A stretch of DNA of 4,925 nt from Escherichia coli. Its GTDB lineage: Bacteria > Pseudomonadota > Gammaproteobacteria > Enterobacterales > Enterobacteriaceae. Numbering within the stretch: the first letter of the stretch is position 1; each line of letters opens with the position of its first letter. The stretch is from assembly GCF_003334255.1 (NCBI RefSeq), contig NZ_QOWU01000106.1. One strand, 5' to 3'. The position numbers were made by a program, and so were the translations under genes. Of the stretch, positions 1 through 4,925 are shown in pieces. Below the pieces are notes generated by a model. That model saw only the letters and a program-made list of their open reading frames with translations. It was not told the DNA's origin and searched no databases.

Positions 1-244
1 CCGGATGCCGCCAGGCAGCCGGGAGCCGAAGGTGCGCCCGGCAGACAGGACAACACTGCAGTAGTCAGAATCAGAGCAGGAAGAAAAAGAGAATAATCAC
101 AGGGAAGGTGATGTGATTTCTGACAGGCCATAACCAGAGAAGGCGGGGGAAAAGAACGGGCGCCGCAGGCGCGCGTTCATCCCCGTTCCTGAAGGGAAAC
201 GACCTTCCTGAAGTCAGGTTGTTCATGCCCGTACAACATCAGCA

Positions 245-350: not shown

Positions 351-509
351 CTACTTACCGGATTCGTAAGCCATGAAAGCCGCCACCTCCCTGTGTCCGT
401 CTCTGTAACGAATCTCGCACAGCGATTTTCGTGTCAGATAAGTGAATATCAACAGTGTGAGACACACGATCAACACACACCAGACAAGGGAACTTCGTGG
501 TAGTTTCAT
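351..509 (-). CDS. hok: Hok toxin (type I toxin-antitoxin, small membrane-depolarising peptide, 52 aa)
   Basis: Manual translation of the minus strand from ATG (complement of 507-509) to TAG (complement of 351-353) gives [52 protein letters not shown]. From memory this matches Hok of plasmid R1 / FlmA of F essentially residue for residue. It has a hydrophobic N-terminal transmembrane segment, lies wholly inside the overlapping mok frame, and sits immediately downstream of psiA as in IncF plasmids. Confidence 0.92.
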
Positions 510-567
510 GGCCTTCTTCTCCTTGCGCAAAGCGCGGTAAGAGGCTATCCTGATGTGGACTAGACAT
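355..567 (-). CDS. mok: Mok (modulation of killing) leader ORF overlapping hok; its translation is coupled to hok translation
   Basis: 70-aa ORF in the track that overlaps the hok CDS in a different frame, the defining arrangement of hok/sok-family loci. ATG at complement of 565-567 with GAGG about 8 nt upstream on the minus strand. Mok has no known independent function. Confidence 0.7.
523..551 (+). promoter_or_regulatory. Candidate sok promoter (-35 TTGCGC, -10 TATCCT, 17-bp spacer), located inside the hok/mok coding region
   Basis: Hexamers read directly from the plus strand; the position gives a transcript of Sok-like length ending at the hairpin/U-tract near 612-623. Match to the sigma-70 consensus is moderate (4/6 and 4/6). 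Confidence 0.4.
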
Positions 568-1993: not shown

Positions 1994-3952
1994 TCAGGCG
2001 GCATCAGCCAGGTTATCGGTGCGTTCAGTGGCATCTGTCTGTGGATGTGGTGCACACATCCAGCCTGGAACCCAGCGGTTGTCTTTCATATGGTGCTCTG
2101 CATGTTCAGCCGCATCACCTTTCTTCATCTTCTCCGCGTCCCGTGCGGCACCGGACAGTCCGGCCTCATTCAGGGCTGCGATAATCTGCGGCTTTTTCAG
2201 GTGTCCGAAGAAGTTTGCTTTTGTCGGCTGCCACCAGTCGCGCATGTGGAATCCGATAGCGCTTTCCAGCGAGTCAAGCGGACTGCGTGACGTGTGACCA
2301 CACTCACGGGTCTGGACACCGTTAAGGCTGCATGCGGTGCAGAAACTGAGCAGGGATAACAGCACCTCCTGACTGAGGGACAGGAATGTCGTCATGTCCC
2401 GTGACCATCCCTCCGGCAGCAGGGCTGCAAGACGGGATTTTTCTGCCATCAGCGCCATGAATGCGGCACCTTCCTTCCCCGATGGCGCATCGCTGGTCAG
2501 CGAATAATGTTCACATTCCAGGCTGATTTGTGCTGGTTTACTGTACGCCCCGCTGCCAAACACATTCAGGCAGAGCGTCCATGCCAGCAGTGCCAGAGAT
2601 TTGTCCGGCTGCTGCATGAGTGCCGCCTGGACTGCCAGCGTGCGCTCTGAGGACATTTTCGTCAGCAACGGCAGGCTGATTTCCTCCACTGACGCTTTCT
2701 CCTGCACCTGTTCCGTGCGGTCAGCGTCGTCAGTCGCGTCATCTTCACTGCGCAACTGCACACCACGCTGGACACATACGTTGCCATAACGCCAGGACAC
2801 CACCACACCGCTTCCGGCACGTATCTCCGGCGTCCACGCTCTGACCTTCGCCATGCAGCGCATCAGCTTCATTTCTGCTTCCAGCAGGTCGGATTCCTCA
2901 CACTGGTTTTCCAGCGCGTCGTAACGCGTCATCAGTTCGTTCAGGCGTTCGTCTTCCGCCTCCGTCAGCACCGCTTCCGGCTCCGGCAGACAGCGGTATG
3001 TTCCGGCATCCTCACGGCACTCACCGACAGGCTCCATGCGCCCGGCGCACCATTCCCAGCCTTCGGCTTCCCGAAGGTGTTCAGCGACAGCCTGGAGTTT
3101 TTCCAGCAGGGCGGCATCGAGCGCCACGCGGTCGACATAACCGTCCCCGTCATCGCTGAACAAATCGGTGCGCAGTTCGTCTGGCGAGAAGGCATCAGCC
3201 CCCACGAAGCGGAATTTACTGTTCCCAGCCACCGCCACTTCACTTTCGGTCACCAGACGACGAATGGTCTGTACTTCCGGTTTACCGCCCCATCCCGACT
3301 GACAGGCGGCTTCAAACACCTGCACCTGACGCGCGGTGTCGTTCTCCAGCGCCAGCGCCTGACAGTGTTCGGTGGTGATGCGGTCTTCTGCCAGCGCATC
3401 GAGGATGACAGGCGCAAGGTCAGCCAGTTTCAGCATTCGCTGAACGTGGCGGGGTGAATAGCCCAGCAAATCACCGATGTGTGCAGGTGTTTTGCCTTCC
3501 TGCGCCATTGCGCGGAATCCGGCAATCTGTTCGGCAGGGTGCATATCCCGACGATGACCGTTCTCGGTCATTGATGCGGCAGTCGCCAGCTCCTGCGGAA
3601 TAATTTTTACGCGGACAGGCCAGTCAGCCGGAATGATGTCACGCTCTGCCAGCATGTTGAGTGCTGCCAGTCGGCGACCACCTGCGGCGACACCGTAACG
3701 GTCACCTGGCAGGGCATGAACAACCAGATTCTGCAGCAGGCCGACTCCCTTAATGGAATCAGCCAGTTCACTGACGGACTCCGCAGAATACGGCACCGTG
3801 CGCACATTCAGCGGTGATTTAATCAGTGAATCCAGCGGCACGCTCACTTCCTCCGTCTGCGCCAGCAGGGCAGACAGTGCAGTTTCCTGCGTTTTTACAG
3901 ATTTACGGCTTGCTTTGCGGGTGGTTTCTGGTTCACACTTCGTTACAGGCAT
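1994..3952 (-). CDS. ParB/Srx N-terminal-domain protein (652 aa) with HTH and a long uncharacterised C-terminal region; leading-region ParB-like protein
   Basis: The N-terminal roughly 200 aa shows ParB N-domain hallmarks: box-I-like LIKSPLNVRT, arginine-rich box-II-like VAAGGRRLAALNMLAE, and a downstream HTH-like segment TPAHIGDLLGYSPRHVQRMLKLADL. The remaining roughly 430 aa has no motif I recognise (no DPPY/NPPY methyltransferase motif, no obvious nuclease motif). Start called at the second ATG (complement of 3950-3952), which has AAGGGG with a 6-nt spacer; the track's first ATG (3958) abuts the SD. Confidence 0.88.
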   Translation of the reverse strand: MPVTKCEPETTRKASRKSVKTQETALSALLAQTEEVSVPLDSLIKSPLNVRTVPYSAESVSELADSIKGVGLLQNLVVHALPGDRYGVAAGGRRLAALNMLAERDIIPADWPVRVKIIPQELATAASMTENGHRRDMHPAEQIAGFRAMAQEGKTPAHIGDLLGYSPRHVQRMLKLADLAPVILDALAEDRITTEHCQALALENDTARQVQVFEAACQSGWGGKPEVQTIRRLVTESEVAVAGNSKFRFVGADAFSPDELRTDLFSDDGDGYVDRVALDAALLEKLQAVAEHLREAEGWEWCAGRMEPVGECREDAGTYRCLPEPEAVLTEAEDERLNELMTRYDALENQCEESDLLEAEMKLMRCMAKVRAWTPEIRAGSGVVVSWRYGNVCVQRGVQLRSEDDATDDADRTEQVQEKASVEEISLPLLTKMSSERTLAVQAALMQQPDKSLALLAWTLCLNVFGSGAYSKPAQISLECEHYSLTSDAPSGKEGAAFMALMAEKSRLAALLPEGWSRDMTTFLSLSQEVLLSLLSFCTACSLNGVQTRECGHTSRSPLDSLESAIGFHMRDWWQPTKANFFGHLKKPQIIAALNEAGLSGAARDAEKMKKGDAAEHAEHHMKDNRWVPGWMCAPHPQTDATERTDNLADAA

Positions 3953-3981
3953 AATCATCCCCTTATAATTGCTTATGTCCT

Positions 3982-4003
3982 GCCGGACGTTCGCGCGTCC
4001 GGC
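3982..4003. other. Intercistronic GC-rich hairpin between the DUF905 gene and the ParB-like gene (stem gccggacg/cgtccggc, 6-nt loop)
   Basis: Perfect 8-bp inverted repeat 3982-3989 / 3996-4003. It lies between the DUF905 stop (4011) and the ParB-like SD/start (3952). Confidence 0.45.
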
Positions 4004-4010
4004 ACCTCTC

Positions 4011-4244
4011 TTACTTAAGAATCCCGAAATCCCTGATGTACCGGTTCATCCAGTACCCGGCACAGTCCTCAAAATTCCAGGAGCGCCAGATCAACGTGCC
4101 ATCCTGACGGACAACCAGGCGAAAATGCGTTCCCTGATCATCCTCGATAAAGACATTCCGGTACTGTGCGGCAACGGCTTCGGCCTGTTTGCGGGTAAAA
4201 GGACCGTCCGGCAGTCCCTGAAGTATTCTGAAATATTCGCTCAT
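4011..4244 (-). CDS. DUF905 family protein (YkfF-like), 77 aa, function unknown
   Basis: Translation [77 protein letters not shown] shares the GPFTRxQAxAV...EDDQGxHFRLVVR...WRxWNFE...NRYIR core with E. coli cryptic-prophage YkfF, as I recall it. The track ORF starts at a GTG (4271); I call the ATG at complement of 4242-4244, preceded by GGAGAG on the minus strand. Confidence 0.8.
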
Positions 4245-4262
4245 CCTCATCTCTCCGGTGAT

Positions 4263-4281
4263 GCCCCGCACTGGACGGGGC
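4263..4281. other. Intercistronic GC-rich hairpin between ssb and the DUF905 gene (stem gccccg/cggggc, 7-nt loop)
   Basis: Perfect 6-bp inverted repeat 4263-4268 / 4276-4281, read directly. It lies between the ssb stop (4300) and the DUF905 SD/start (4244) and is not followed by a U-tract in mRNA sense. Confidence 0.45.
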
Positions 4282-4299
4282 GGTTGTCACTGTCTTTCG

Positions 4300-4827
4300 T
4301 TAGAACGGAATGTCGTCATCGAAGTCATACGCGGGTTCAGACGGCTGCTGAGGCTCCGGCTGCGCGGCCTTACGTCCACGGCCTTTCGTTTTCGCGCCTC
4401 CTTTTTTCGGTTCCGGCTGTGATTCCGGCTGAGGCTGACCGCTGAACTGTTGCGCCTCTTCCGGCTGAGTCTGAGTACCTGCGGCACGTCCCAGCATCTG
4501 CATGGTGCCCGTGGTCTTAACAAGAATTTCGGTGACGTAACGGGTGATACCGTTATCCTCCCAGCTACGGGTGCGAAGCTGACCTTCGATGTAGACCTGC
4601 GCGCCCTTGCGCAGATACTCACCAGCCACTTCCGCGAGCTTGCCGAACAGCACCACGCGATGCCATTCTGTCTGCTCCCGTATCTCCCCCGTCTGTTTGT
4701 CGCGCCAGCTTTCTGACGTGGCCACCTGCAGGTTTGCCACTGCGCCCCCGTTTGGGATGTAACGGACTTCCGGATCTTTTCCCAGACGACCGACAAGAAT
4801 GACCTTGTTAATGCCACGAACTGCCAT
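4300..4827 (-). CDS. ssb: Plasmid-encoded single-stranded DNA-binding protein SSB (175 aa)
   Basis: Translation [48 protein letters not shown]... is a canonical OB-fold SSB N-terminus. The C-terminus has a Gly/Pro/Gln-rich linker and the acidic tip [11 protein letters not shown] at complement of 4825-4827 is preceded on the minus strand by AAGGAGA with a 7-nt spacer. The track's extra 13 N-terminal codons (to 4866) have no SD and are rejected. Stop TAA at complement of 4300-4302. Confidence 0.95.
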
Positions 4828-4925
4828 GATGTGTCTCCTTCTGTTGATGTTTTCAGCCCCCATCATCTGTTGAGTTTCGGGAGCCGCGGTTTTGACGTTT
4901 TGCGGGGACCTGCTCTTTGTTCCCT

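Follow-up and report, generated by a model that had tools for sequence, protein, structure and literature searches.

The end of the sequence examined here raises the question of how a plasmid gene is expressed when no recognisable promoter precedes it. The gene is ssb, and its start codon lies 98 nt from one end of a 4,925-nt stretch of Escherichia coli DNA (contig NZ_QOWU01000106.1; in the following called the window). We observed homology of the upstream sequence to an element of the F plasmid, a long hairpin on one strand, conservation and covariation of this hairpin, a bias in stability between the two strands and the absence of a duplex promoter. Positions 4828–4925 are very likely the ~100 nt nearest to the gene in a class-1 single-stranded DNA (ssDNA) promoter, a homologue of Frpo2 (= ssp1b; Frpo/ssi family). 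The element is already described as Frpo2/ssp1b, and our analysis adds no new biology to it.

Plasmid and gene context

Over its whole length, the window is 99.9% identical (4922/4925) to the IncF plasmid p1658/97 (NC_004998), and the 626 nt surrounding the region of interest match many E. coli IncF plasmids at 100%. The p1658/97 record (called L001 below) was used to read past position 4925. Its plus strand is the ssb sense strand, and the coordinates convert as window position = 9926 − L001 position.

The minus strand of the window carries ssb, a DUF905 gene, a gene for a 654-aa ParB-like protein, psiB, psiA, and hok with the sok RNA. In identical or near-identical plasmids, genes in this order are transcribed towards SLT/oriT/traM, and plasmid typing yielded MOBF/MPF_F. 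This gene set makes up the leading region of a conjugative plasmid of the IncF type. In F, the genes ssb, DUF905/yfjA, ParB-like/yfjB, psiB and psiA constitute the Frpo2 operon (PMC9849209). The transferred strand is the template for the leading genes and corresponds to the plus strand of the window (strand assignment after PMC11541004). Between the last upstream ORF and ssb, ~470 nt are free of annotated genes in the p1658/97 record.

At the other side of the window, a hok-family toxin ORF (351–530, minus strand) and a sok antisense RNA (507–683; Rfam RF01794, 88.9 bits) form a module at positions 351–683. To this flm/hok module a stabilising effect on the stretch between both Frpo copies has been ascribed (PMC9849209). 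In an Rfam scan of the window, sok was the sole match, and no RNA family was assigned to 4828–4925.

The features referred to below are, in window coordinates:

4300–4827, minus strand: plasmid ssb, first gene of the Frpo2 operon
4828–4860, minus strand: variable leader between the repeat and ssb, with the Shine-Dalgarno (SD) sequence AAGGAGA (4834–4840); 52% column identity
4846–4914, minus strand: repeat tail, family D6, with three copies in p1658/97 (repeat search and BLAST)
4861–4873, plus strand: motif X1, CCATCATCTGTTG on the plus strand; 91% column identity and 9/14 invariant columns in 18 copies
4874–4925, plus strand: predicted 5′ arm of the basal stem of the Frpo2-type hairpin, cut by the window end (MFE and pair probabilities, DNA parameters)
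4884–4889, no strand assigned: ccgcgg palindrome, an invariant part of the basal stem arm, in which CCGCG is predicted to pair with CGCGG at L001 4744–4748

The ssb start codon and the 98 nt upstream

Read as the ssb sense strand (window minus strand), the 98 nt ahead of the start codon are AGGGAACAAAGAGCAGGTCCCCGCAAAACGTCAAAACCGCGGCTCCCGAAACTCAACAGATGATGGGGGCTGAAAACATCAACAGAAGGAGACACATC. The preliminary description, made from the window alone, had placed the start at the ATG at 4825–4827 on account of its SD; AAGGAGA indeed lies at window 4840–4834, and the same ATG is the RefSeq start (WP_000290793.1). Two in-frame upstream ATGs (ATGATG, 4866–4861, minus strand), from which the ORF would comprise 188 aa, had been described as lacking an SD, and none is present in the 20 nt ahead of them (CGGCTCCCGAAACTCAACAG). 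They are not the ssb start, as they sit in a conserved non-coding repeat motif that is also found ahead of unrelated genes. A function of ATGATG as true start or uORF was rejected on the same grounds and because it reads GTGATG in other copies; it is further disfavoured because at least one copy (Kp37_c) has it in a different frame from the gene that follows.

Only the final ~33 nt before the ATG, including the SD, are specific to ssb, and the rest belongs to a repeat. Accordingly named the variable leader, positions 4828–4860 differ between copies that precede different genes (18-copy alignment) and are the last part of the presumed 5′ UTR. Folded as RNA, the presumed leader showed no unusual structure (z = +0.24), and an RNA-level regulatory fold was dropped for this reason.

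A short palindrome with flanking T-runs had also been pointed out. The palindrome ccgcgg is present at 4884–4889 (plus strand), and the T-runs (TTTT GACG TTTT) lie on its 3′ side on the plus strand, with just TTT on the 5′ side. A 6-nt palindrome is expected by chance within 98 nt. As a local hairpin of interest ccgcgg was rejected, since the 98 nt alone, folded as ssDNA, gave z = +0.44. The features of the 98 nt are by themselves no better than chance, so that their significance appears only when the sequence past 4925 is added.

Search for a duplex promoter

A good −35/−10 pair upstream of ssb had been reported missing, and a consensus scan of 3900–4925 likewise detected no promoter-like site on the minus strand. 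Under relaxed criteria, the best match within these 98 nt of the ssb sense strand scored 7/12 (TCAACA-18-CATCAA). About 0.3 promoter-like sites are expected by chance per kb scanned, and the absence of a promoter from 98 bp is itself expected by chance. In the extended sequence (L001 3600–5200, about 1.5–1.6 kb), no sigma-70-type duplex promoter was found on either strand. The preliminary description had named an ordinary upstream gene, with a terminator and promoter accounting for ssb expression, as the finding that would speak against a special element; no duplex promoter was found in the ~1.5 kb upstream, and such an arrangement was thus not observed.

The best sigma-70-like site in the scanned window, GTTACA-16-TATAAT (10/12), lies at 3942–3969 on the plus (transferred) strand, where it runs antisense to the beginning of the ParB-like gene. 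By chance, the scanned region should hold about 0.3 sites of this quality.

A leading-region repeat homologous to Frpo2

Reading past position 4925 in the 100% identical plasmid record revealed a ~450-nt repeat with a long imperfect palindrome. Three direct copies of it occur within the p1658/97 leading region, at L001 ~1271–1721, 4628–5080 and 10027–10479, and window positions 4846–4925 are the gene-proximal tail of the copy ahead of ssb. In the repeat search, the tail (family D6, L001 5012–5080) was 80–84% identical to L001 1653–1721 and 10411–10479; by BLAST, the whole element was 91% identical to the two other p1658/97 copies.

In comparison with F, the element shows 94.5% identity over 471 nt with the sequence directly upstream of ssb (Frpo2/ssp1b) and 89.9% identity over 454 nt with the second copy, upstream of ygeA (Frpo1/ssiD). 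The ssiD sequence (GenBank D90178, as listed in Samuel et al. 2024) starts at the equivalent of window position 4857, inside the region of interest, and the functional Frpo2-acrIIA4 fusion (PMC11541004, supplement 11) includes the region of interest up to the same junction and ATG. This homology, together with the hairpin described below, bears out the earlier suspicion that the window boundary cuts off a larger structured element, possibly a single-stranded promoter. The full element is not contained in the window, which holds only its last ~80–100 nt (4846–4925); the loop, both promoter candidates and the entire 3′ arm lie beyond 4925. The element was found in at least 5000 plasmid records, with about four copies each.

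The repeat family is cut by both window ends. Positions 1–90 (L001 9836–9925) belong to it as well; they open a 300-nt flank (family D2, 97% identical to L001 4437–4736) on the upstream side of the next Frpo-type copy, which is situated downstream of hok. This flank is itself strongly structured as ssDNA, with about −75 to −87 kcal/mol per 300 nt in windows overlapping the copy at window 1–90 and down to −92 kcal/mol per 300 nt in the homologous flank before ssb. Further upstream, between the methyltransferase gene and the Frpo2-type element, two overlapping ORFs annotated as hypothetical, whose coding status looks doubtful, contain a (CTGCTA)n / CTG-rich tandem repeat about 570–660 nt past the window end (L001 4346–4435).

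A long hairpin on the transferred strand

Folding of the extended region as ssDNA predicted a ~320-nt imperfect hairpin on the transferred strand. For the 221 nt around the palindrome, which is centred at L001 ~4897, the free energy was −68.4 kcal/mol compared with −33.8 ± 3.4 for shuffles (z = −10.1), and for 501 nt of the transferred strand it was −142.9 kcal/mol (z = −11.5). The complete hairpin comprises 319 nt with −101 kcal/mol; the length of the Frpo hairpin has been quoted as 328 nt (PMC7690428). In the 501-nt fold, window positions 4874–4925 form 42 pairs with L001 4734–4787. When a published screen using 300-nt windows and a threshold of dG < −75 kcal/mol was applied to 10.5 kb of L001, only the three repeat copies stood out.

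RNAalifold with RNA parameters proposed a small local hairpin within the region of interest, at alignment columns 44–76, with a shorter basal stem. This structure was not adopted because it depends on G-T wobble pairs, shows no covariation, and DNA parameters prefer the long-range basal stem.

Conservation and covariation among 18 copies

We aligned 18 copies of the element from E. coli, Klebsiella, Raoultella, Enterobacter, Serratia and an insect-gut metagenome (alignment A2). With the tested structure derived from one of these 18 sequences, the 123 pairs of the full hairpin were 83.9% paired across the copies versus 41–47% in slid controls, and in the basal stem, of which the window holds the 5′ arm, 83.4% of cells were paired versus 41–51%. 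Pairs changed on both sides numbered 30 of the 123 in the full hairpin (11–21 in slid controls) and ten in the basal stem, counts that do not represent independent events, because the copies are related and those within a plasmid may homogenise each other. The mean pair probability over the 18 copies (DNA parameters) was 0.8–0.9 at window ~4909–4914 and 0.4–0.6 at 4874–4907. In all 18 copies the transferred strand was more stable than its complement, by 8–26 kcal/mol (mean 15.5 kcal/mol), a pattern that selection acting on the transferred DNA in its single-stranded form would create.

The most conserved block of the element lies inside the window, at 4861–4914, with 91% column identity and 35/56 invariant columns, compared with 46–69% identity in the upper hairpin. 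At its gene-proximal edge, motif X1 holds the complement of both in-frame ATGs and lies outside the predicted stem; by contrast, 4874–4914 pair in the basal stem. X1 is a near-copy of the lower-stem motif CACCyGTTTGAG. The 12–15-nt motif occurs as a direct repeat, at window 4861–4873 and at L001 ~4975–4990, reading CTCAAACAGGTGATGG and CTCAACAGATGATGG on the sense strand. Although unpaired in the predicted stem, the motif copy outside it is nearly invariant in the 18 element copies from several genera, and an alternative pairing with the 3′ arm is conceivable for it.

Going by sequence conservation, the block 4861–4914 may have a separate, undescribed function beyond pairing, although we regard this as unlikely. 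Possible roles would be a transcript-fate signal in the template or nascent leader (mRNA versus hand-off as primer to DNA polymerase III), an alternative-pairing switch or a protein-binding site.

Four copies from Klebsiella and Enterobacter (Kp45_a, Kp45_c, Ecl_a and Ecl_b; L004 and L006) have lost the AT-rich top of the hairpin. In these, ~60 nt are replaced by a short GCGCGG-TTTA-CCGCGTGC tip, and CATTTACCCTGGACAG is retained together with the whole lower and basal stem. Such copies constitute a natural deletion series that could reveal which parts of the element are needed.

Promoter candidates and a possible mechanism of expression

By linear spacing, the sole conserved sigma-70-like pair on the transferred strand is TTGAGA-17/19-CATCAC/TAAACC. 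It is weak (8/12), is located on the 5′ arm and would read towards the loop. The candidate on the 3′ arm consists of a conserved CCCTGGACA and an AT-rich tract near the loop, with no recognisable −10. We prefer a 3′-arm promoter that would run from loop to base, because CCCTGGAC(A) and the AT-rich tract at the loop are also conserved in IncI1 elements that have no TTGAGA, and because UP, −35 and −10 elements have been described (Samuel et al., PMC11541004) and the only AT-rich tract lies at the loop. TTGAGA-N17-CATCAC on the 5′ arm ranks second, as the functional Frpo2 construct does not contain the pairing partner of TTGAGA and ColIb-P9 does not contain the motif.

Promoter activity of the single-stranded element, its requirement in vivo and its capacity for priming would apply here by analogy with the F homologues, for which they are documented in the literature. 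The two F copies were named Frpo2 and Frpo1 by Couturier et al. 2023 (PMC9849209). Wen et al. 2025 (PMC12672017) grouped Frpo1/2 with ssi1–3 of ColIb-P9 as class-1 ssDNA promoters, determined start sites by 5′ RACE for six pESBL promoters, including the class-1 elements ssi1–3, and reported that F genes located downstream of Frpo1 and Frpo2 were enriched in RNA-seq. Under the name ssp1b/Frpo2 the element also appears in a 2026 preprint, according to which ssp1/Frpo transcripts prime conversion in vivo (bioRxiv 10.64898/2026.01.09.698686).

In the mechanism that we propose from these studies, the transferred strand (the window plus strand and the ssb template) would enter the recipient single-stranded during conjugation. 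The ~320-nt imperfect inverted repeat would then snap back, with positions 4874–4925 providing the 5′ arm of its basal third, and the stem duplex would mimic a sigma-70 promoter. RNA polymerase would most probably start mid-stem, ~30–50 nt past the window edge, the positions of boxes and start being inferred. Transcription would proceed down the 5′ arm, across 4828–4925, into ssb, yfjA, yfjB, psiB and psiA, so that 4828–4925 would become the 5′ UTR carrying the SD AAGGAGA. The transcript could also prime synthesis of the complementary strand. Once made, the complementary strand would remove the hairpin and leave a linear duplex without a usable −35/−10 pair, upon which expression would stop, resulting in a transient “zygotic induction”. 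Finding no duplex promoter is consistent with an element that would be silent as duplex and active, with stimulation by SSB, only as ssDNA.

Through ssDNA promoters, SSB, SOS inhibitors and anti-defence genes are expressed before the incoming DNA becomes double-stranded, which makes these elements central to the establishment of resistance plasmids in new hosts.

Alternative explanations

Transcription of ssb might instead come mainly from read-through of the upstream operon (hypothetical, DUF3560 and methyltransferase genes, with its own repeat copy ~3.4 kb upstream), the inverted repeat then acting as an attenuator, RNA processing site or stabiliser. The upstream genes are co-oriented with ssb, and directly before it there is no strong intrinsic terminator on the sense strand but only a weak 5-pair candidate (L001 4763–4776). 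The extra upstream repeat copy is moreover present in p1658/97 and R100-type plasmids (L003) and was not found in the 15.5 kb of F examined. However, it is in F that deletion of Frpo2 alone, with an element 94.5% identical to the present one, abolished the early production of Ssb-sfGFP and YfjA-sfGFP in transconjugants (PMC9849209), and a functional anti-CRISPR was expressed from a truncated Frpo2 fragment that had been moved to another site of the transferred strand (PMC11541004). Roles of the repeat at the RNA level are opposed by the strand bias in 18/18 copies, which fits a structure at the DNA level, and by the leader RNA (z = +0.24). We consider read-through as the main source of ssb mRNA quite improbable.

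Even less probable is that the element primarily serves as a single-strand initiation site (ssi) for priming the complementary strand, with the ssb mRNA being incidental. The homologous F sequence (Frpo1) was in fact first isolated as ssiD, and according to later accounts of the work of Masai and Arai 1997 it supported sigma-70 RNA polymerase-dependent transcription and priming on ssDNA in vitro, including the production of primer RNA (PMC9849209, PMC7690428, PMC8406263). An early, rifampicin-sensitive conversion near ssp1/Frpo has been observed in vivo (bioRxiv 10.64898/2026.01.09.698686). Such a role is, however, compatible with that of a promoter. Behind each copy, no more than about 35 nt away, come an SD and the start codon of a leading gene, and deletion of Frpo2 removes protein production whereas the transfer frequency is not reduced (PMC9849209).

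A non-functional, promoter-less spacer with ccgcgg by chance would agree with the unremarkable folding of the 98 nt alone and with a missing promoter expected by chance in 98 bp, but can practically be dismissed, given the high conservation of 4861–4914 across genera, the threefold occurrence of the sequence in the plasmid and its pairing with sequence 250–320 nt away.

Comparison with known systems

The closest known element is Frpo2/ssp1b of F, which also lies directly upstream of ssb in an IncF leading region and shares the downstream operon, the predicted hairpin and the SD/ATG junction. The two differ in about 5% of the sequence, and the element described here is one of three copies, whereas F has two. 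The difference in number results from an extra upstream module (hypothetical, DUF3560, methyltransferase) that brings its own copy. This third class-1 copy, at L001 1271–1721, lies ahead of the hypothetical gene, the DUF3560 gene and the gene for a class I SAM-dependent methyltransferase; it was not found in the 15.5 kb of F examined (L002). Recombination seems to add or remove the modules that separate the repeats, which has been proposed for IncI plasmids as well (PMC3817090). Within the leading region of Klebsiella plasmid pKPC2_020037 (L003 14202–15869), a group II intron reverse transcriptase/maturase gene (ltrA) is inserted between the antirestriction module and the Frpo-type copy upstream; it occupies the opposite strand.

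Frpo1/ssiD of F is alike over ~450 nt (~90%), and the published ssiD starts inside the homologue of the region of interest; it precedes other genes and shows several compensated differences in the upper stem and loop.

The IncI1 plasmids ColIb-P9/R64 (L007) carry ssi1–3, which match the present element in role and in being placed upstream of ssb. Common to both are also the upper stem GTCCGGGG...CCCTGGAC, an AT-rich tract close to the loop and the 3′ flank, and the hairpins are equally stable (z = −8.6). In the ColIb-P9 element upstream of ssb, however, the gene-proximal basal block CCGCGGTTTTGACGTTTTGCGGGG... is absent, and the base is different and branched.

The class 2 and 3 promoters (ssp2 and ssp3; F, pESBL) resemble class 1 in that a hairpin on the transferred strand of the leading region drives zygotic induction, but, as the authors state, share no sequence homology with class 1 (PMC12672017). 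Unlike class 1, ssp2 is additionally a replication roadblock that is resolved by UvrD (bioRxiv 10.64898/2026.01.09.698686). No class 2 or class 3 ssDNA promoter was found in the window.

The general principle extends to filamentous phages with RNA polymerase-dependent minus-strand origins and to rolling-circle plasmids with ssoA-type single-strand origins. In the minus-strand origins of M13/f1 and in ssoA-type origins, folded ssDNA mimics a sigma-70 promoter, and the RNA made by the host RNA polymerase primes the complementary strand. Their sequences are unrelated to the element described here, and they yield a short primer only, with no downstream mRNA. Frpo/ssi elements have been called functionally comparable to sso (PMC7690428).
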